From IMG/VR virus record IMGVR_UViG_3300009838_000005: a stretch of DNA of 43,376 nucleotides; one strand, 5' to 3'. Below, piece by piece: positions 3,745-42,527 of this stretch. The DNA comes from a virus. Within the stretch, counting starts at the first letter, position 1, and each line of letters opens with the position of its first letter. Below the pieces are notes generated by a model. That model was not told where the DNA came from. It ran no database searches and saw only the letters and a list, made by a program, of their open reading frames with translations. A program made the position numbers and the translations under genes.

Positions 3745-4647
3745 ATGTCCGAGTTCTTGAACTCACTCAACACGCCCGACAATGCCCCCGGCCAGTCATG
3801 GGCCGCAGAGGTTGCCGCCGCAGAGGCTACGGAAGCCCCAGCGCCCGCGCCTGAGCCCGTTGCAGAGGAGACGGCACCAGAACCCGCCCCCGAAGCGGAA
3901 GCCGCTCCCGCGCCCGCAGAAGCCGCTCCTGAGCCTGCCGAAGATGACCGCCGCGTGCCGCTCAAGGCATTGCAGGAGGAGCGGGCCAAGCGGGCAGAGT
4001 ACGAGCGCAAACTGGCCGATTATGAGCGGCGCATGGCCGAACTGGAGCAGCGCACCAAGGCACCGGAGCCGGAAGCACAGACGGAAATTGACCCCGAAAC
4101 AGACCCTATCGGCGCACTCAAGGCCGCCCGCGACGAACTCCGCAAGATGCGCGAGGAGGCGCAGCGTCAACAGTATGAAGCGCAATTGAATAACATCGCG
4201 CACGCTGCCGCGACACAGTTTCAGCAGCAAGCCCCCGACTATCGGGACGCCTACCAATATGCACTCAGATCAAGAGCACAGGAGTTGCGTGTGCTTGGCG
4301 CGGATGACGCGACCATTCCGCAGATTTTGAAGCGCGAGGAGATGAACCTCATCGCAACCGCCGTGAACAGCGGGCGCAACCCGGCAGAGGCTATTTACGA
4401 GTTCGCCAAGGCGCGAGGCTACGCCAAGGCGGCTCCCGCGCCTGTTGCCGCTCCCGCTCCTGCCGCGCCCGATCCGGCGCTACAGCAGGCCAAGAAGGCG
4501 GTTGCCGCGTCTGCATCAGCAGGCGGTGCGCCCGCAAGCAAGGGCGAAATATCGGACGCCGATGCCGTGAACCTCAAGGGCGCGGCCTTCGATGCCTACT
4601 GGAACAAGAAATTTGGCGGGAATCGGTCTTCGATCTTCCGCGAATAG
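3745..4647 (+). CDS. Scaffolding protein (putative, 300 aa)
   Basis: AGGAG RBS. The N-terminus is Ala/Pro/Glu-rich and is followed by a long charged coiled-coil segment (ERAKRAEYERKLADYERRMAELEQ). The gene sits directly upstream of the capsid gene. Confidence 0.6.
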   Translation: MSEFLNSLNTPDNAPGQSWAAEVAAAEATEAPAPAPEPVAEETAPEPAPEAEAAPAPAEAAPEPAEDDRRVPLKALQEERAKRAEYERKLADYERRMAELEQRTKAPEPEAQTEIDPETDPIGALKAARDELRKMREEAQRQQYEAQLNNIAHAAATQFQQQAPDYRDAYQYALRSRAQELRVLGADDATIPQILKREEMNLIATAVNSGRNPAEAIYEFAKARGYAKAAPAPVAAPAPAAPDPALQQAKKAVAASASAGGAPASKGEISDADAVNLKGAAFDAYWNKKFGGNRSSIFRE

Positions 4648-4660
4648 CAACCCCTAACCC

Positions 4661-4768
4661 GGTGCCGCCGACCTCAACGGGCGTCCTTCGCTAGGCCAGC
4701 GTCAAAGGCCAAAAGGTGCCGCCAACCTGAATGGGCGCTTCGCCGCTGACCAGCGTCATTGGTCGGAA
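4661..4768 (+). repeat. Two tandem ~54-nt imperfect repeats in the capsid-gene 5' leader, each ending in a hairpin
   Basis: Both units start GGTGCCGCC(G/A)ACCT. Their hairpins are GGCC-agcgtcaaa-GGCC (4694-4710) and GACCA-gcgtcat-TGGTC (4748-4764), with a compensatory G-C to A-T change. Confidence 0.6.
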
Positions 4769-4800
4769 ATTCTCCAACACCACTTTCAGGAATTAGTGAA

Positions 4801-5189
4801 ATGGCTACAACCGATTATCCGGTTGGTCATCCGCTTGCCGTGAAGCTGTGGTCGAAGAAAATTGCGCGTGAAGCACTGAAGGAAACGATGGCCATGAAGT
4901 TCATGGGCACGTCTTCCAACAACCTCATTCAGGTTTTCGACGACACCAGCAAGGGCGCGGGCGACCGTATCCGAGTCCCACTCCGTATGCAGCTTTCGGG
5001 CCGCGGCGTGGGCGAAACCGATGCTCTGGAGGGCAACGAAGAAGCCCTTTCGACCTACTACGACGACACGCTCATCAATGATCTGGCGCACGCCGTTCGC
5101 GTGAAGACGACCATTGACGCCCAGCGCGTGCCGTTCAGTGTCCGTGAGGAAGCCCGTCTTGGCATTCAGGACTGGTATTCCGACCGCAT
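4801..5189 (+). CDS. Major capsid protein, exon 1 (HK97-fold, N4 gp56-type family)
   Basis: Starts at ATG 4801. The sequence MATTDYPVGHPLAVKLWSKK...FMGTSSNNLIQVFDDTSKGAGDRIRVPLRMQLSGRGVGETDALEGNEEAL is the N-terminal signature of this capsid family. The frame enters the intron after U5189. Confidence 0.8.
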
Positions 5190-5986
5190 TAACTCTGTCA
5201 GTGCCCTTGCTGCGTAAGCAGCATTGAATAACCCCGTGAATTGCTGGAAAACCTGACCATTTAGTTGCAGGCAATCAGCAGCCAAGCTTGAATTGTTGGT
5301 ACGCATATGCTATAAAAAGTGTATGGAAACCAGCAACCGGAAATGCAAGAAGTGCGGTGATGAAAAGCCGCTGGCCGAGTTCCCCAAGCACGACAAAGGG
5401 GGCCATCGGCACGAGTGCAAAGAGTGTCAGCGGAACAGAATACGTGGGTGGGAAGCCCGCAACGCTGACAAAAAGAAGGTAAACGCCAAGGCTTCATATG
5501 ACCGTCTGCGGGCCGATCCAGAGTGGAGGGAACGCAGAAACGCTCAGAAGCGCGTAAGCAGCGGCAATAATTATGCCGCCCGAACCCGCGATGAAGTCAT
5601 TGCCGCTTATGGTGGGCCGATCTGTGCTTGCTGCGGTGAAACGGAACCCAAGTTTCTGACGATTGACCACATCAACAATGACGGTCACCTTCATCGGAAG
5701 CAAGGGAATGGCGCTACCAATCTTTACAACCATCTGAAAGCAAGAAAATTTCCTCCAGGCTTTCAGGTTCTTTGCATGAATTGCAATTTCGGAAAGGCTC
5801 GAAACGGTGGCATCTGCCCCCACAAGAGCCGTCAAGAAGGTTCAGAGACTATCGCGCAAGCGAGTACGCTCAAGTGAGCGGAAGCGCGGGGCACCCGGAT
5901 AACGGGTGATGATATAGTCCGAACTCATCAGAAATGGTGAGCAGCCGAAAGGCGGTTGCGGCGTAACGCCCCGCAACGAACGTATG
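5190..5986 (+). mobile_element. Group I intron (797 nt) carrying an HNH homing endonuclease ORF
   Basis: Core elements are P 5239-5253, Q 5273-5283, R 5840-5854 and S 5908-5920. The internal guide TGTCAGTGC 5196-5204 pairs with the ligated exons GCAT|TGACA. The terminal base is G5986. A GNRA hairpin lies at 5208-5223. Confidence 0.8.
5323..5877 (+). CDS. Intron-encoded HNH homing endonuclease (184 aa)
   Basis: N-terminal zinc-finger cysteines (CKKCG...CKECQ). The HNH core is CACCG...LTIDHINNDGHLHR...NLYNHL...LCMNCNFGK. ATG 5323 is preferred over TTG 5293. The 3' end overlaps intron element R. Confidence 0.8.
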   Translation: METSNRKCKKCGDEKPLAEFPKHDKGGHRHECKECQRNRIRGWEARNADKKKVNAKASYDRLRADPEWRERRNAQKRVSSGNNYAARTRDEVIAAYGGPICACCGETEPKFLTIDHINNDGHLHRKQGNGATNLYNHLKARKFPPGFQVLCMNCNFGKARNGGICPHKSRQEGSETIAQASTLK

Positions 5987-6674
5987 TGACACGATGCTTG
6001 CCAACCAGTTGACGGGCAACACCGCCGTTTCGGACACGCTCTATACCGGCAACAACGCCGCTGTAGCGCCGTCGTCCGGCACGGGTGCCGATCGCCGCTG
6101 GATCATCCGTGAGCAGGACACCGAGTCCGACCACACCACGGAAGCCTCGCTTTCCACGTCCGACACCTTCAGTCTCAAGCTGCTGGATCGCGCCGTTGCG
6201 ATCGCAAAGACTTCCAGCCCGCTCATCCGCCCGATCAAGGTGGGTGCGCAGTCCTACTATGTCGCATTCCTCCATCCCTACCAGGTGAAGGACATGCGGA
6301 CCTCGACCAATACCGGCGACTGGCTTGATATCCAGAAGGCCGCGATGGGCGGGGGCGATGTGAACGACAATCCCATCTTTACGGGTGCGCTTGGCGTTTA
6401 CAACGGTGTCGTGCTGCATGAGTGGACCCGTCTGCCGAATGGCATCGGTGCGAACTCTGCCAACACCCGCCGGGCCGTGTTCTGCGGAGCGCAGGCTGTA
6501 TCTCTTGCTTGGGGCCAGGGTTATTCCGAAGCCCCCAAGTATATCGAGGATTTGTTTGATTATGACCGCCAGTTCGGTGTGTCGGTTCAAACGATAATCG
6601 GTGCCAAGAAGACGCAGTTCAACTCCAAGGACTTCGGCACTATCGTAATGTCAACCTACGCCGCAGCGCCGTAA
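5987..6674 (+). CDS. Major capsid protein, exon 2
   Basis: Continues as (I)DTMLANQLTGNTA...VAFLHPYQVKDMRTSTNTGDWLDIQKAA...FCGAQAVSLAWG, typical of the same capsid family. Exons of 389 + 688 nt give 1077 nt, a 358-aa product. Confidence 0.8.
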
Positions 6675-6689
6675 AGGAGGGAACCGAAA

Positions 6690-7139
6690 ATGGCTACCGC
6701 AACCTTTACCATCGCTGGTCCGATGGCGGCCTCGTACAAGCATAACGAGGTCATCACCAAGGTTCAGTCGCTTGTTTCGACTGCCACTTGGTCAAACGGT
6801 GACGTGTACGTTCTGAACAACATCAAGCTGCCTCACGGCGCTATCGTGACGGATATCAAGGTGAAGGGCTCCGTTGTAGACGGAACCTATCTGCTTGAGG
6901 CTGGCACGGTCGGCTCCGCTGGCGTGATTGACGTGTTCGGTTCGCGCACGTTCTCGGCAACCGCTGTTCTGGCGCTGACGACTTTCAGCCCCATCGTGCA
7001 GAACGTGCCTTACACCATATCAGTTAGCGACGATGCCGCAGACCGGTATCAGACGTTCGCTGTGCGTGTGGACGGTGCCGCGACCTCTGGAACGACCTCC
7101 GTGTCGCTTCAGTTCGTCGTGACCTACGTCTGCCGCTAA
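6690..7139 (+). CDS. Head-associated protein, possible capsid decoration protein (149 aa)
   Basis: Strong AAGGAGG RBS. The gene lies immediately after the capsid gene and before a terminator, and its composition is beta-rich (Val/Thr/Ser). The function is inferred from position only. Confidence 0.5.
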   Translation: MATATFTIAGPMAASYKHNEVITKVQSLVSTATWSNGDVYVLNNIKLPHGAIVTDIKVKGSVVDGTYLLEAGTVGSAGVIDVFGSRTFSATAVLALTTFSPIVQNVPYTISVSDDAADRYQTFAVRVDGAATSGTTSVSLQFVVTYVCR

Positions 7140-26801: not shown

Positions 26802-27332
26802 CTACTGTCCTCCTGTAGGTGCGGGGGAGAGGGCGGCGCGGGCGATGGTAAAAGCCTCGCACAAGGCGGCATTGCAAGCACAGACGTCATCGTGATCATA
26901 GTTGCTTGGGTTCAGTTCGCCGGGCAGGTCAAAGATTGCTTGCAGCGGCGCCTCCAGCTCCTTCACGCGTGCGGTGAGACGGAGGTTGTCTAGTTGCAGT
27001 GACAGGTTTTGATCTACCAGTTCCAAGGGGTAATAGATTGACCATGCTATTCCTGCGGACAGCGCAACCGCGCTCGTGACCTCATGATTAGGCCGCGAAA
27101 TCCATGCGGACTTTTCATCAAGCACGCGCTCGACGGCCTTATAGATTGGCGAACCGCAATCCGCTGCCGTGATGATGGCTTGCAGCCTCTCCACCTCTGC
27201 GGTGAGGCGCGTTAAGGTGTCTGCAGCTTCGGCGCATGTACACCCGGAGCGAACGTCCATTACCTTGCAACGGTCGTCGCAGCATTCAATGCACGGGTCT
27301 CCGCGCCGCAGCCTCTCCACTAAGTCACTCAT
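26802..27332 (-). CDS. Cys-rich plus coiled-coil paralogue family member A (176 aa)
   Basis: GAGAGGA RBS before ATG 27332 (MSDLVERLRRGDPCIECCDDRC...). Motifs are LTAEVERLQAII, LTARVKELEAPL and C-terminal AALSPAP. The upstream part of the 267-aa ORF is an Arg/Gly/Cys-rich shadow. Confidence 0.55.
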   Translation of the reverse strand: MSDLVERLRRGDPCIECCDDRCKVMDVRSGCTCAEAADTLTRLTAEVERLQAIITAADCGSPIYKAVERVLDEKSAWISRPNHEVTSAVALSAGIAWSIYYPLELVDQNLSLQLDNLRLTARVKELEAPLQAIFDLPGELNPSNYDHDDVCACNAALCEAFTIARAALSPAPTGGQ

Positions 27333-27613
27333 CTGCTGTCCTCTCTGGTGCAAAATTCCTCTGGTAGGAACGGAGCGTCTGGCAGGGCCGCCCACGCATA
27401 GACACCACGCACTTCCTCGCCGCGCGGGCCGTGTGTCCACTTCTTGCGGCCCCTGTGCCAATGGGCAATGGTTACAGTTGTGCGCCATTCCGGCTTTTCG
27501 CCCCAAATGGCCGCCGCTAGCCGATCCTCTGCATCGCCACCCGTGCGGCGTGCGACCAGCACATCTCCCCACGGGCGTGTAGCGCCTTTTTTGATGTAAA
27601 CCCAACCCGTCAT
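27329..27613 (-). CDS. Hypothetical protein (94 aa)
   Basis: MTGWVYIKKGATRPWGDVLVARR... There are ATGA overlaps at both the start (27613) and the stop (27329). Confidence 0.5.
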   Translation of the reverse strand: MTGWVYIKKGATRPWGDVLVARRTGGDAEDRLAAAIWGEKPEWRTTVTIAHWHRGRKKWTHGPRGEEVRGVYAWAALPDAPFLPEEFCTREDSR

Positions 27614-27879
27614 GGTGCGGGAGCCTGCCTTCTGAGACGATGCGGTGAAGCTGTGCCGTAGCCGTTGCCGTAGCCGTTGCCGTAGCCGTAGCCGTAGCCG
27701 TTGCCGTAGCCGTTGCCGTAGCCGTTGCCGTTGCCGTAGCCGTTGCCGTTGCCGTTGCCGTAGCCGTCGCCGTAGCCGTCGCCGTAGCCGTAGCCGTCGC
27801 CGTCGCCGTAGCCGTTGCCGTAGCCGTAGCCGTAGCCGTTGCCGTCGCCGTAGCCGACTGGCCTTATAGTGGGGGCCAT
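27610..27879 (-). CDS. (Tyr/Asn/Asp)-Gly dipeptide-repeat protein (89 aa)
   Basis: MAPTIRPV-(Y/N/D G)x34-TASPHRLRRQAPAP. This frame alone has a start (TGATG) and a stop (ATGA) coupled to both neighbours. Confidence 0.5.
   Translation of the reverse strand: MAPTIRPVGYGDGNGYGYGYGNGYGDGDGYGYGDGYGDGYGNGNGNGYGNGNGYGNGYGNGYGYGYGNGYGNGYGTASPHRLRRQAPAP
27655..27858. repeat. 34 tandem hexanucleotide repeats GCCGT(A/T/C) (last unit GCCGAC)
   Basis: Counted directly. Only the last position of the + strand hexamer varies (A/T/C, never G). Confidence 0.9.
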
Positions 27880-38487: not shown

Positions 38488-38736
38488 ATGTCTGAGCGTG
38501 GACGCAAGCCTGGGTTCGTCATGTCAGCCGAACACCGGGCTAAAATCCAAAACAGCAACATTCTCAATGCCTTGATTGAACACGTCGAAGGCAGCAGGGA
38601 AATGTCGTCCACGCAAGTCACAGCGGCCCTTGGATTGCTCAAGAAGGCGCTCCCTGACCTGTCTGCCGTAGAGATTGGTTCCGACCCTGACAGGCCAATG
38701 AGGATGACGTTTGAGTGGATGAAGCCCAGCGAATAG
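38488..38736 (+). CDS. terS: Putative terminase small subunit (82 aa)
   Basis: The gene lies immediately upstream of terL and overlaps it. It has a basic N-terminus (MSERGRKPGFVMSAEHRAKI). Assigned by position. Confidence 0.5.
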   Translation: MSERGRKPGFVMSAEHRAKIQNSNILNALIEHVEGSREMSSTQVTAALGLLKKALPDLSAVEIGSDPDRPMRMTFEWMKPSE

Positions 38737-40025
38737 TCATCCCATATTCGCCCCGCCGCCATTTCCTCCCCTATCACGAAACCGCCAAACGCTGGCGGAT
38801 CATCGTTGCACACAGAAGGGCGGGAAAGACAGTCGCATGTGTCAATGGCCTCATTCGTTCCGCTCTTACCTGTCCACGGCCTGAGCCAAGAGTTGCCTAT
38901 GTCGCGCCGCTCTACAAACAGGCCAAGGATGTCGCCTGGAGCTATCTTAAAGAGTTCACCAGAGACATTCCAGGACGAGGCGTCAACGAATCAGAACTTC
39001 GGGTTGATCTTCCAAACGGAGGACGGGTCCGCCTTTACGGTGCCGACAACCCTGACGCTCTCCGAGGCTTGTATCTTGATGATGCTGTCCTTGACGAATT
39101 TGCCGATATGCGACCGCGCTTCCTTCCAGAGGTTATCCGTCCTGCTCTCTCGGACAGACGGGGAAGCCTGACCCTTATCGGCACGCCGAAGGGACACAAC
39201 GAATTTTACGACCGCTGGCAGGGCGCTGAGAATGACCCGGAGTGGTTTCGCATGATGCTCAAGGCGTCTGAAACCAACATTGTTGACGCCGAAGAGCTTG
39301 CATCCGCCAGAAAGATCATGAGCGAAGCGCAGTATGCCCAAGAATACGAGTGTTCTTTCGAGGCTGCGATTGAAGGAGCTTACTACGGCCTTCTTCTTGA
39401 GACGGCTGCGCAAGAGGGCCGAATCGCCGCGTTGCCGCACAATCCTGCACTTCCCGTCTTTACTGCATGGGACTTGGGAGTTGGAGACGACACAAGCATC
39501 TGGTTCGCGCAGAGGTCTGGCGGTTGGATTCACGTTATCGACCACTATGCAACCAACGGACAACCCGCAAACCACTACGTGGATGTACTTCGGGCCAAGC
39601 CCTACACCTATGCCCGTCACTTTCTGCCGCATGATGCCGAAAACCGTGAGTGGACCAACGGCAAATCAAGGCTCGACACACTCAAGGCGCTCGGCCTTAA
39701 GGATTGTAAAGTGATCCCGCGCATGGCTGTTGACGATGGCATCAACGCGGTTCGGTTGCTTCTGCCGACATGCCGCTTCGATGCTGAGAAGTGCGCGACA
39801 GGGCTTGAAAGCCTGAGACAGTATCGGCGTGAGTACGACGAAAACAAGCGCGTGTTCAAGCCGTCGCCGCTGCATGACTGGACGAGCCACGACGCCGATG
39901 CGTTCCGTTACCTCGCAACGGGCATGGAACCCGACGCCGCGATACCGCCAGACATTCCCCGCTATGCGGGCCGCAGACGGCGCGGTGATGCCGCATTCTC
40001 AGATGACAGTGGATGGGCCGCGTGA
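38715..40025 (+). CDS. terL: Terminase large subunit (436 aa)
   Basis: The Walker A-like motif is IVAHRRAGKT and the Walker B-like motif is GLYLDDAVLDEFADM. The C-terminal nuclease region reads AWDLGVGDDTSIWF...FLPHDA...HDWTSHDADAFRY. Confidence 0.85.
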   Translation: MDEAQRIVIPYSPRRHFLPYHETAKRWRIIVAHRRAGKTVACVNGLIRSALTCPRPEPRVAYVAPLYKQAKDVAWSYLKEFTRDIPGRGVNESELRVDLPNGGRVRLYGADNPDALRGLYLDDAVLDEFADMRPRFLPEVIRPALSDRRGSLTLIGTPKGHNEFYDRWQGAENDPEWFRMMLKASETNIVDAEELASARKIMSEAQYAQEYECSFEAAIEGAYYGLLLETAAQEGRIAALPHNPALPVFTAWDLGVGDDTSIWFAQRSGGWIHVIDHYATNGQPANHYVDVLRAKPYTYARHFLPHDAENREWTNGKSRLDTLKALGLKDCKVIPRMAVDDGINAVRLLLPTCRFDAEKCATGLESLRQYRREYDENKRVFKPSPLHDWTSHDADAFRYLATGMEPDAAIPPDIPRYAGRRRRGDAAFSDDSGWAA

Positions 40026-41668
40026 CAGATGACGAAATGAACACGGACGCGCCCGACATGATGCTGGAAATACGCCAGCGTTATGAGGCCGCGCGTTCCC
40101 ATGCGTCCAAGTGGCGTGAGGAGGCGAGGGAAGCCTTTGACCTTTACGCCGGTCGCCAGTGGTCGGAACAGGACCGGCAGAAGCTGATTGAACAGCAGCG
40201 CGTGCCGGTGACGTTCAACCGCGTGGCCATCCTGATTGATGCCGTCATCGGCTATGAGGTGAACAACCGACAGGAAACGCGTTACATTCCGCGCACGCCT
40301 GGCGATGCCAAGGTCAATGAACTGCTTACCGAGGCGGCGAACTACTTCAGGGACGCCTGCGACGCTGAGTTCGAGGAGTCCGACGCCTTCCGCGATATGT
40401 GCATCTGCGGCATGGGATGGACGAACGACCGCATCACCGACGAACGCAACCCCGATTATGATTTGGTGCGCGACCGCGTTGACCCGCTTCGCATGCTGTG
40501 GGACGCTTCCAGCCGCAAGCCGAACCTCGAAGACGCCAGATATATCTTTTATGAGACCACCTATTCCAAGGACGAGGCCAAGGCGCTTGTTCCTGAATGG
40601 GACGGCGAATACGTTCACGCCGATTGGCTTGGTGATGACGTGGACGACACCATCGGCAGCGAAAACCCGCGCGATGCCTACAAGGGCCAGGACGATGGCC
40701 GTTCGGCAACCCGCAATGTCCGCGTGCTTGAATATCAATATGTTGTGGACAAGATCGAACACGTCATCACGAACCCGGAGACGGGCGAAGTTGGCACGAT
40801 GACGGACGAGGAATGGTTTGACCTCAAGGAGGACGAACACAAGGCATTTGCGCCGTACCACGCCACGCGCCGCACCCGCGAATGGAAACGGTGTTTCTGC
40901 ATTGGCGGGGAGCATTTCCCGGTTGAACATCCCTATCCCAAGGGGCCGACTTATCACTGCATCACGGGCAAGCGCGACCGCAACACAGGCTATTGGTTCG
41001 GCCTGCTGCGTTCGCTCCGCGACCCGCAGATGTGGAGCAACAAATTCCTGTCTCAGATCATGCACCTCATCAATACGTCGGCCAAACCCGGCTATGACAT
41101 TGAGAAGGGCGCGATTGACAATGTTGCCACCTTCGAGGCCAAGGCGGCGCGTCCTGGTGCAATCAACGTCTTCAGTGACGGTTCGCTTCAGCAGGGCCGT
41201 GTCCAGCGCCGCGAAGCCGTGGGCCTGCCGCCTGACCTCGCTAACCTGATGACCTACGCCAACGAAAGTATGCAGAACGTATCCGGCGTCAACTCAGAAT
41301 TGCTCGGCATGGCTGACCGTGAACAGGCGGGCGTCCTTGAGTACCAGCGCAAGCAATCCGCCGTGACGCTTCTTGCGCCGCTGTTCGACAGCTTCCGCCG
41401 TTACCGCAAGATGGCGGGCCGGTGCTGGTTGTACTTCATGCAGCAATACCTGACAGACGGGCGTCTGATCCGCATCACCACGGACGACGGCGGGCAGATG
41501 AATGTTCCGTTTCAGATGGGGCAGATACCGAACCCGGCATTTGGTGGCGCTCCGCAGATGCCGCCTGACATGATGGGCGGTCAGCAGCAAATGCCGCCGC
41601 AAGGTTTGGCGATGCCTGCCGAAACCGCGCCCATGCCGATGCCTCAGTTGGGGGTGCCGAATGGATAA
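40013..41668 (+). CDS. Portal protein, N-terminal ~2/3 (551 aa ORF)
   Basis: It follows terL. The sequence has portal-type features (RQWSEQDRQKLIEQQRVPVTFNRV...). It ends in a Pro/Gln/Met-rich low-complexity tail just after a G5 run. Confidence 0.7.
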   Translation: MGRVTDDEMNTDAPDMMLEIRQRYEAARSHASKWREEAREAFDLYAGRQWSEQDRQKLIEQQRVPVTFNRVAILIDAVIGYEVNNRQETRYIPRTPGDAKVNELLTEAANYFRDACDAEFEESDAFRDMCICGMGWTNDRITDERNPDYDLVRDRVDPLRMLWDASSRKPNLEDARYIFYETTYSKDEAKALVPEWDGEYVHADWLGDDVDDTIGSENPRDAYKGQDDGRSATRNVRVLEYQYVVDKIEHVITNPETGEVGTMTDEEWFDLKEDEHKAFAPYHATRRTREWKRCFCIGGEHFPVEHPYPKGPTYHCITGKRDRNTGYWFGLLRSLRDPQMWSNKFLSQIMHLINTSAKPGYDIEKGAIDNVATFEAKAARPGAINVFSDGSLQQGRVQRREAVGLPPDLANLMTYANESMQNVSGVNSELLGMADREQAGVLEYQRKQSAVTLLAPLFDSFRRYRKMAGRCWLYFMQQYLTDGRLIRITTDDGGQMNVPFQMGQIPNPAFGGAPQMPPDMMGGQQQMPPQGLAMPAETAPMPMPQLGVPNG

Positions 41669-42527
41669 GGGCAACATCTCACAGCAGCCCTATTTGTCCT
41701 TCTTTCAGGACGATACGGCTGAATATGACGTGATTGTTGACCAGTCCTCATCGGCTCCGAACCTGAAGGAGGCGACGTGGGGCGCAATCCAGCCGTTGCT
41801 GCCGATCGTCGGCCCGACGATGGGGCCGGAAGAAATGGCGTTGGTGCTGGAATATTCGCCCATGCCGGAATCGTTCCTTGAGAAGTTCAAGGCATTGCAG
41901 GAAGCCAAGGCACAGCAGCCGCCCCCTCCTGACCCGGAAATGATGAAGGTCGAGGCCATGAAGCAGGCCAAGGCCGCTGAGTTGCAAATGCGCCAGCAGG
42001 AAGCGCAAGTGGAAATGCAAGTCGAGGCGCAGAAGAACGCGCAACAGATGGAGTTGGAACGGCAGAAAGCCGCTGCACAGATTGAACTTGAGCGTATGAA
42101 GGCCGCCGCAAATATCCAGCTAGAGCGCGAGAAGGCACAGGTCCAGTTGATGATGGACCGCGAACGCATGACGTTCGAGCGTGAGAAGGCCGAAGCAGAC
42201 ATGGAGTTCCGTGAGCGGTCCACGAAGGCCGACAGGGACAGCAAACTTGAGTCTGCCCGCTTCGACGCGGCGCTAAACTTCAAGGATAACCCGGAGCAGT
42301 TGAACGAAATGCTTCACGACAAGAAACTGACCGCAGCCATTGAGCAGATGACGCAGGCCATGGCCGCGCTGGCTCAGTCGCAGATGCAGATGGTTCAGTC
42401 CCAGGCCGAATCCAATCAGGCCATTGCTCAAAGCGTGGCTCAGATGGGCGCTGACCTGAAGCAGGCAATGACCAAACCGAAGCAAATCGTCCGTGGGCCG
42501 GATGGCCGCGCAATAGGAGTCCAGTAA
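41661..42527 (+). CDS. Portal protein C-terminal part (crown plus Gln/Ala/Glu-rich barrel-like coiled coil), a separate 288-aa ORF in the +1 frame
   Basis: AEYDVIVDQSSSAPNLKEATWGAIQPLLP plus a long Q/A/E-rich helix parallels the P22 gp1 C-terminus (YECYTDVGPSFQSMKQQN... then the barrel). Confidence 0.6.
   Translation: MDKGNISQQPYLSFFQDDTAEYDVIVDQSSSAPNLKEATWGAIQPLLPIVGPTMGPEEMALVLEYSPMPESFLEKFKALQEAKAQQPPPPDPEMMKVEAMKQAKAAELQMRQQEAQVEMQVEAQKNAQQMELERQKAAAQIELERMKAAANIQLEREKAQVQLMMDRERMTFEREKAEADMEFRERSTKADRDSKLESARFDAALNFKDNPEQLNEMLHDKKLTAAIEQMTQAMAALAQSQMQMVQSQAESNQAIAQSVAQMGADLKQAMTKPKQIVRGPDGRAIGVQ

Follow-up and report, generated by a model that had tools for sequence, protein, structure and literature searches.

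The virus genome recorded in IMG/VR as IMGVR_UViG_3300009838_000005 (43,376 nucleotides; 'the window' means this whole stretch) raises the question of how a phage makes its major capsid protein from a gene that is broken in the middle. The capsid-frame open reading frame (ORF) starts with the ATG at 4801 and ends with the TAA at 5215–5217; the downstream piece of the gene lies in another frame and runs to 6674, and a third ORF lies between the two. We conclude that the interruption (5190–5986) is very probably an intron of the self-splicing group I kind, IA2-like in its layout, that interrupts codon 130 of a major capsid gene of the N4-gp56 type and carries the gene for a probable HNH-type endonuclease. 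The split of the capsid gene, the exact restoration of its frame, a group I core with covariation, the family relationship of the intron ORF and a presence/absence polymorphism of the insertion among relatives are established directly.

The capsid gene and its exon junction

The two pieces of the capsid gene match successive parts of one protein family. The upstream piece matches positions 3–132 of the PF13252 profile (Phage_capsid_3, N4-gp56 type) with 100.5 bits, and the downstream piece matches positions 130–375 of 376 with 142.2 bits (the cutoff is 23 in both cases); combined, they span positions 3–375. Because the profile is covered first from 3 to 132 and then from 130 to 375, the two ORFs are read as consecutive halves of one capsid protein; exon 1 also matches the PHROG family phrog_334 ('major head protein'). 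Joining position 5189 to position 5987 gives 389 + 688 = 1077 nucleotides (nt), that is, a product of 358 amino acids (aa) that reads ...DWYSDRIDTMLANQ...; at the nucleotide level, the predicted ligated junction would read ...GACCGCAT followed by TGACACGATG.... An earlier reading of the same DNA (the original prediction) had placed the stop of the capsid frame at 5217, its resumption in another frame, the intervening ORF at 5323–5877 and the 358-aa sum as given here; the ORF map and the join bear out all of these.

The capsid homologues agree on where the exons meet. A search of 5.8 billion proteins returned thousands of them, many exactly 358 aa long and with up to 92% identity; JGI and NCBI label them 'N4-gp56 family major capsid protein'. 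When 40 uninterrupted homologues were aligned to the spliced product, the alignment was gap-free across the junction, and the residues around it are kept (...DWY[SA][DE]R-[I/L/V/F]-D[TQ]..AN...); together with the profile matches (3–132, then 130–375), this confirms the colinearity on which the original prediction depended.

Three joins yield 1077 nt (5188/5986, 5189/5987 and 5190/5988). The first is ruled out because it places Ser where the homologues always have I, L, V or F; the third leaves the protein unchanged and is ruled out because the intron would end in U, against the omega-G rule. Among these joins, only 5189/5987 fits both the protein alignment and the U/G rules of group I introns. 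The predicted tryptic peptide of the spliced protein after R129 is IDTMLANQLTGNT..., and its I, D and T lie upstream of the only ATG in exon 2 (5994).

The codon-130 site is polymorphic, with intron-less alleles at two loci (L124 and L125). Across the insertion site, L124 reads ...GGTACAGTGACAGAAT followed by CGACACGGCCCTGGCC.... In both intron-less alleles, and at the equivalent place in the related locus L002, codon 130 is AT/C (the slash marks the insertion site); in all intron-bearing alleles it is AT/T, or CT/T in the diverged copy L127. This T is the first base of exon 2 and takes part in helix P10.

An intein is ruled out by the stop codons in all continuing frames, the frame change and the separate ORF. 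The minus-strand ORFs at 4786–5274 and 5928–6590 lie antisense to the capsid exons, which are GC-rich, and nothing supports them as genes.

The group I core and its covariation

In E-value mode, the only match to any Rfam family in the window is RF00028 (Intron_gpI), which aligns to 5189–5941 over the full model (1–253) with 35.5 bits, against a gathering score of 50; the E-value is 3.4e-7 for a 1-kb stretch and 1.5e-5 for the whole 43-kb window. The alignment contains two insertions, one of 545 nt at the P6 loop (5289–5833) and one of 31 nt, which lies after the 5' strand of P7 and before the 3' strand of P3. We explain the shortfall below the gathering score by the first of these, that is, by the ORF insertion in P6; an ORF-less relative with a near-identical core (L002-A) scores 83.7 bits with the same model. 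A group II intron is ruled out, because domain V/VI features are absent and the group I model matches.

Once its ORF is deleted, the intron has a folding energy of −99.3 kcal/mol (z = −3.76), a value that not one of 200 shuffled sequences reached. The pseudoknot-free minimum free energy (MFE) fold recovers P2, P3, P4, P5, P7.1, P7.2, P8, P9, P9.1 and P9.2. The rules for both splice sites are kept, that is, the U before the 5' site pairs with G, and G is the last base of the intron; the sequence GAACGU(A/U)UG directly ahead of the 3' splice site is common to the related loci L001, L002-A, L129 and L130. All of the coordinates in the original prediction (core elements P, Q, R and S, the hairpin at 5208–5223, the guide, the exon ends GCAT and TGACA, and G5986) are correct; they are collected with the other features in Table 1. 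The TAA that ends the exon-1 frame lies inside the GUAA loop of P2.

An ORF in an extension of P6, combined with P7.1 and P7.2, is the layout of introns of the phage T4 td type (IA2). We call the intron IA2-like because P7.1 and P7.2 are present, so the subgroup is assigned by helix layout as read from the sequence. Class IA is defined by peripheral elements of this kind, located between P7 and the 3' strand of P3 (PMC3984707).

Table 1. Coordinates of the capsid exons, the predicted intron and its parts, other genes and related introns (window positions unless another sequence is named).
Feature	Position	Strand	Remarks
Capsid exon 1	4801..5189	+	389 nt; codons 1–129 and the first two bases of codon 130; ends with U5189
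Capsid exon 2	5987..6674	+	688 nt; begins with the third base of codon 130 and includes the stop codon
Predicted group I intron, IA2-like	5190..5986	+	797 nt; RF00028 match, helix covariation, fold z = −3.76
Intron ORF (HNH-type nuclease candidate), 184 aa	5323..5877	+	ATG start; mechanical ORF from TTG 5293; stop TGA 5875–5877
P1	5186–5190 / 5200–5204	+	exon GCAU + U5190 pairs with AGUGC; U5189·G5201 wobble at the 5' splice site
Internal guide sequence TGTCAGTGC	5196–5204	+	sequence, local fold
P10	5196–5200 / 5987–5991	+	UGUCA pairs with exon-2 UGACA, 5 bp
P2 hairpin	5208–5223	+	UGCUGC-GUAA-GCAGCA, GNRA loop
P3	5232–5238 / 5885–5891	+	CCCCGUG / CGCGGGG
Core element P AATTGCTGGAAAACC	5239–5253		P4/P5 region
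P4	5242–5247 / 5275–5280	+	Rfam alignment; encloses P5
P5	5252–5255 / 5268–5271	+	
Core element Q AATCAGCAGCC	5273–5283		P4/P5 region
P6	5281–5282 / 5840–5841	+	
P6a	5287–5291 / 5832–5836	+	loop 5292–5831 holds most of the ORF
Core element R GTTCAGAGACTATCG	5840–5854		
P7	5847–5852 / 5914–5919	+	GACUAU (in R) / AUAGUC (in S); pseudoknot with the P3 domain
P7.1	5852–5863	+	UCGC-GCAA-GCGA, GCAA loop, MFE fold
P7.2	5867–5880	+	CGCUC-AAGU-GAGCG, MFE fold
P8 hairpin	5892–5908	+	CACCCG-GAUAA-CGGGUG
Core element S GATGATATAGTCC	5908–5920		
P9	5924–5941	+	GAAA loop, MFE fold
P9.1	5944–5953	+	GAAA loop, MFE fold
P9.2	5955–5977	+	MFE fold
Omega G (terminal intron guanosine)	5986	+	sequence
Large terminase	38715–40025		
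Portal	40013–41668		
L002-A intron, ORF-less	L002 3707–3992		after codon 31/32; RF00028 83.7 bits
L002 second intron	L002 ~4690–5548		after codon ~264; carries a 200-aa ORF, 42% identical to that of the window
MW202512.1 intron	L126:2154–2900, about 27010–27757	−	

The helices were compared with those of related introns. Scanning IMG/VR for the R...S core pattern located at least 120 loci; the 18 closest to the window by BLAST provided 33 further introns that exceed the Rfam gathering score (53–106 bits), and these were aligned with the ORF-deleted intron of the window and the two introns of L002 (36 introns). Canonical pairing amounts to 95% in P3 (double changes in 6 of 7 pairs), 100% in P4 (4 pairs covary), 90% in P6a (5 of 5 covary), 88% in P8 (6 of 6) and 88% in P9 (6 of 7); P7 is 92% canonical, with five of its six pairs invariant and canonical, or nearly so. 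As a control, the 3' partner of each helix was slid by one or two columns, and canonical pairing dropped to 6–62%.

Homologues of the intron ORF led to further copies of the capsid intron at the same site, two of them close (L129 and L130) and one diverged (L127, with an ORF 63% identical); same-site copies with ORF identities down to 63–67% keep the helices through compensatory changes. Between the window and L127, 49 of 66 pairs are unchanged, 10 show compensatory changes, 2 are changed on one side and 5 are broken, the last mostly at helix ends and in distal P10. Compensatory changes occur in P3 (two), P7.1 (one), P9 (two) and P9.2 (four); in P1, the exon change A5188→C (CTT, Leu, for ATT, Ile) is matched by U5202→G in the guide. 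In L127, P2 is a different 8-bp stem with the GUAA loop unchanged; in L129 and L130, the pair G5897–C5903 of P8 is replaced by U–A. Selection has therefore acted on the pairings, including the exon–guide pairing that sets the splice site.

With the full-model match to RF00028, the covariation in 36 introns and the compensatory changes in L127, the proposal of a group I intron in the original prediction stands; its assignment of P1, P10 and the omega G is likewise right, as the matched exon and guide changes in P1 of L127 attest. Its expectation for the covariance model was borne out: the match is full-length with an E-value of 1.5e-5 in the whole window, with the qualification that 35.5 bits is below the gathering score.

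The intron ORF, the proposed mechanism and the alternatives

In the protein encoded by the intron ORF, an N-terminal zinc ribbon (CxxC...CxxC) is followed by a helical linker and then, at the C-terminus, by an HNH-type (beta-beta-alpha-Me) nuclease motif. It has 2934 homologues at E ≤ 1e-3, nearly all of them unnamed, and none of the 120 that were listed has a Pfam domain on record. In an alignment of 44–46 homologues, the zinc ribbon cysteines (C8, C11, C32 and C35) are invariant, as are C101, C103, C104, D115, H116, C151, N153, C154, N155, C165 and H167; N119 is conserved in at least 90%. We take this arrangement (CxxC...DH...N...CxxCN) to be the pattern of zinc-bound beta-beta-alpha-Me nucleases of the HNH/endonuclease VII type. 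The ORF matches the PHROG profiles phrog_1035 ('endonuclease VII', 2.7e-17) and phrog_2255 ('HNH endonuclease', 2.2e-16). An AlphaFold2 model has a mean pLDDT of 87.5 (about 50 over the last 15 residues), and a Foldseek search of BFVD with this model returned 34 matches at E ≤ 1e-3, mostly named HNH endonuclease, with TM-scores of only 0.2–0.44. Judged by the PHROG profiles, the motif conservation and the predicted-fold matches with their low TM-scores, the ORF probably encodes an HNH-type nuclease. The same three lines of evidence favor the HNH label in the original prediction, whereas the HNH models of Pfam and NCBIfam do not match.

From its start in the P6a loop, the ORF continues through the 3' strands of P6a and P6, then J6/7, the P7 5' strand and P7.1, and its stop falls in P7.2. 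Its last 15 codons (EGSETIAQASTLK...) are the in-frame translation of P6'/J6-7/P7/P7.1/P7.2, and the C-terminal tail QEGSETIAQASTLK is the in-frame reading of GAAGGTTCAGAGACTATCGCGCAAGCGAGTACGCTCAAGTGA (5833–5877). The original prediction had described an overlap of the last codons with R and P7; this overlap is real but wider than described, comprising P6a', P6', J6/7, P7, P7.1 and half of P7.2. The TGA that terminates the ORF spans the loop and the 3' strand of P7.2. A similar tail (EGS[T/E]TI..GST.KR) is present in at least 28 of the 120 best homologues, in proteins that are otherwise about 45% identical; as judged from these sequences, the conserved C-terminal tail of the endonuclease family probably reflects constraint on the RNA. 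ORFs that reach into core sequence are a known arrangement (PMC3984707).

A broader proposal would combine two statements, that is, that the intron and its endonuclease gene form one co-evolved, dual-coding unit and that the capsid family is a hot spot for introns; we offer the two jointly as a tentative idea that we regard as rather doubtful. If the coding is dual, the catalytic core would have to be unwound by any ribosome that reached the end of the ORF; a given transcript could then either yield endonuclease or be spliced to capsid mRNA, but not both, a built-in switch between 'spread' and 'make virions'. If the family is a hot spot, its at least three independent sites (codons ~32, 130 and ~265) could serve phage–phage competition by marker exclusion.

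For the intron itself, we propose the following mechanism. In the late pre-mRNA, in which the exon-1 frame would be closed by the TAA in the P2 loop, the guide (5196–5204) would pair with the end of exon 1 as P1, with the wobble pair U5189·G5201 falling at the splice site. P7 would bind an exogenous guanosine, which would attack after U5189; the guide would also hold exon 2 through P10 (5196–5200 with 5987–5991), and G5986 would dock so that the exons are ligated to the 1077-nt ORF for the 358-aa capsid protein. Ligation is needed for this ORF, so capsid production would depend on RNA splicing. Either unspliced RNA or the excised intron would serve as the template for translation of the endonuclease; on the model of other phage intron endonucleases, it would cut or nick the intron-less capsid alleles of co-infecting relatives, and repair of the cut allele would copy the intron in (homing). 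For the catalysis of self-splicing, the activity and target of the nuclease and homing, we infer by analogy from what is established for the family (PMC3984707). The 3' 199 nt of the intron (5788–5986) are 94.5% identical to L001:1–199, compared with 84.9% for exon 2 and 76.8% for the next gene; higher identity of the intron than of its flanks suggests that the intron has moved laterally.

Several points weigh against this account. Splicing is a prediction. At curated thresholds, an Rfam scan of the whole window gives no match, the RF00028 score being below the gathering score, and P1 has only 5 bp. Translation of the ORF would compete with folding of the ribozyme, and the higher conservation of the intron could partly be RNA constraint, not mobility. 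For the ORF, searches of Pfam (E up to 10) and NCBIfam found only sub-cutoff noise (DUF6510, Stc1 and similar). Searches of PDB sequences (phmmer and profile) found nothing significant; the weak matches (E 0.07–1.8) are to a zinc-finger protein, a group II maturase region and the N-terminus of Hpy99I. Foldseek against PDB was not significant either, its top matches being the beta-beta-alpha-Me nucleases T5 SciA and Hpy99I (E 0.35–0.6). Scanning 4600–6800, the region ahead of the ORF included, detected no promoter-like (sigma-70-like) site.

Among the competing accounts, the one that survives best is a decayed intron that does not splice; the capsid would then be made as two polypeptides (residues 1–129 with a short tail, and a product from Met 5994), or the phage would be defective. 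This account draws on the Rfam score below the gathering threshold, and both capsid pieces are indeed ORFs with possible start codons. However, all of the core helices are intact and canonical, and the 5' splice-site U·G, the omega G and P10 are preserved; the same-site copies at 63–67% ORF identity keep their helices by compensatory changes and therefore require selection on the RNA. All of the uninterrupted homologues are single chains, unbroken at the junction. Ten large contigs (20–50 kb, from ENA, JGI and Logan assemblies) carry the identical element, as seen from an identical intron ORF; the phage is thus in circulation and has to produce capsid. ENA ERZ27257455 comes from samples in which this phage occurs. 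We consider decay very unlikely.

We judge it highly improbable that the ORF is a free-standing HNH homing endonuclease gene between the capsid halves, with no ribozyme and with the frame restored in some other way or not at all. Such genes are common beside phage structural genes (PMC3706429), and the intron-ORF family also occurs in other contexts; however, the flanks of this ORF carry a complete, covarying group I core that RF00028 matches end to end, and the boundaries obey the group I rules to the exact base, with the frame restored. An assembly artefact, that is, a chimera of the capsid gene with unrelated intron-like DNA, is conceivable since the window is probably a metagenome assembly, but it can be practically dismissed because the same architecture occurs independently in ENA, JGI and Logan assemblies and in the diverged relatives L001, L127, L129 and L130.

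Related introns and the phage

Relatives of the group I intron interrupt capsid genes at other codons. The capsid of L002 is 83% identical to that of the window; its codon 130 is without an intron, and its gene contains two other group I introns (Table 1), both with canonical P1 pairing that includes the U·G. An unannotated capsid intron is also present in GenBank MW202512.1 (Podoviridae sp. ctDrO704, Manatee Spring), with an RF00028 score of 47.5 bits (E 4.7e-10). That phage resembles the window in its capsid (about 50% identical), its group I intron and its ORF, which is of the same family and located in P6 with a tail through the core; it differs in the insertion site, which is near codon 32 and not 130. 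In its annotation, the intron ORF is an 'icea protein', and the capsid appears as separate small coding sequences ('hypothetical protein' and 'major capsid protein'). Some IMG/VR contigs have many group I introns within a few kb (five in L075, four each in L003 and L085, three in L074), and each of these introns passes the Rfam gathering threshold.

Phages are a classic setting for group I introns with homing endonuclease genes, and the T4 td intron with I-TevI belongs to subgroup IA2. In layout, the window's intron is like td: P7.1 and P7.2 separate P7 from the 3' strand of P3, the endonuclease ORF occupies the loop of the P6 extension, and an in-frame stop comes shortly after the 5' splice site; td is mobile by DNA homing, which we propose by analogy for the window's intron. 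The td endonuclease is of the GIY-YIG type, not HNH, and its host gene belongs to nucleotide metabolism, not to the capsid; unlike td, the window's intron has an ORF that extends into the core (P6', J6/7, P7, P7.1 and P7.2).

Its 3' core is 72–78% identical over 90–140 nt to introns in the DNA polymerase genes of podophages; those of PhAPEC5/PhAPEC7, pYD6-A and Dickeya BF25/12 and the DNA polymerase intron of LUZ24 belong to the same IA2-like core family. In their records, the matched regions are called 'HNH endonuclease inducing intron mobility' or 'DNA polymerase'. These HNH-bearing introns differ in their host gene (DNA polymerase, not capsid), and the likeness given here is that of the RNA core.

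Capsid genes with a group I intron and a homing endonuclease gene have been described before (PMC3706429). By description only, the lactococcal phage Tuc2009 is similar in having a group I intron in a capsid subunit gene, and different in being a phage of a low-GC Gram-positive host (PMC3706429). For the major capsid gene of mycobacteriophage LittleE, RT-PCR and N-terminal sequencing demonstrated that a group I intron is spliced (Pope et al. 2013, PMC3706429). As in the window, U is the last base of exon 1 and G the last base of the intron; in contrast, LittleE is a siphovirus among the actinobacteriophages, its endonuclease is LAGLIDADG-like and encoded on the opposite strand (PMC3706429), and neither its capsid gene nor the sequence of its intron is related to that of the window.

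What goes somewhat beyond the routine is a capsid family with related introns at three codons and a conserved endonuclease tail that is the translated ribozyme core. The most abundant virion protein of this phage would be made only after RNA splicing. Because the capsid needs splicing, gene callers fragment its gene, in MW202512.1 and in the gene calls of metagenome assemblies as well, and recognizing the intron yields the correct 358-aa capsid protein. With the window, a podophage lineage of the Proteobacteria type joins the few phages known to have introns in their capsid genes, and the related introns at three sites, with the intron-less alleles, provide a natural system for the study of homing-site choice. 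Since the family of the intron ORF (~3000 proteins) is missed by current Pfam and NCBIfam, the intron context gives it a functional label.

At about 43 kb, the window is a phage genome, apparently circularly permuted, that encodes virion proteins. Its nearest named capsids, those of Rhizobium phage RHph_Y1_10, Paracoccus phage KLEP18-1 and Microcystis phage Mae-JY35, are about 50% identical; megablast of 4700–6800 against 50,697 deposited phage genomes gave no match. A terminator scan of 4600–6800 found one terminator-like site, on the minus strand, which is fewer than in shuffled sequences. Directly upstream of the capsid gene, an Ala/Pro/Glu-rich ORF (3745–4647, 300 aa) matches Pfam and PHROG at noise level only; by position, it is probably a scaffolding protein. 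Two ORFs that overlap in different frames, 40013–41668 (551 aa) and 41661–42527 (288 aa), match positions 4–482 and 501–654 of the portal family phrog_156; this pair (40013–42527) could be a split or frameshifted portal, or the second ORF could be a separate gene with a portal-like C-terminal domain. The order is similar in L002, where a separate ORF of 225 aa comes after a 546-aa P22_portal product.

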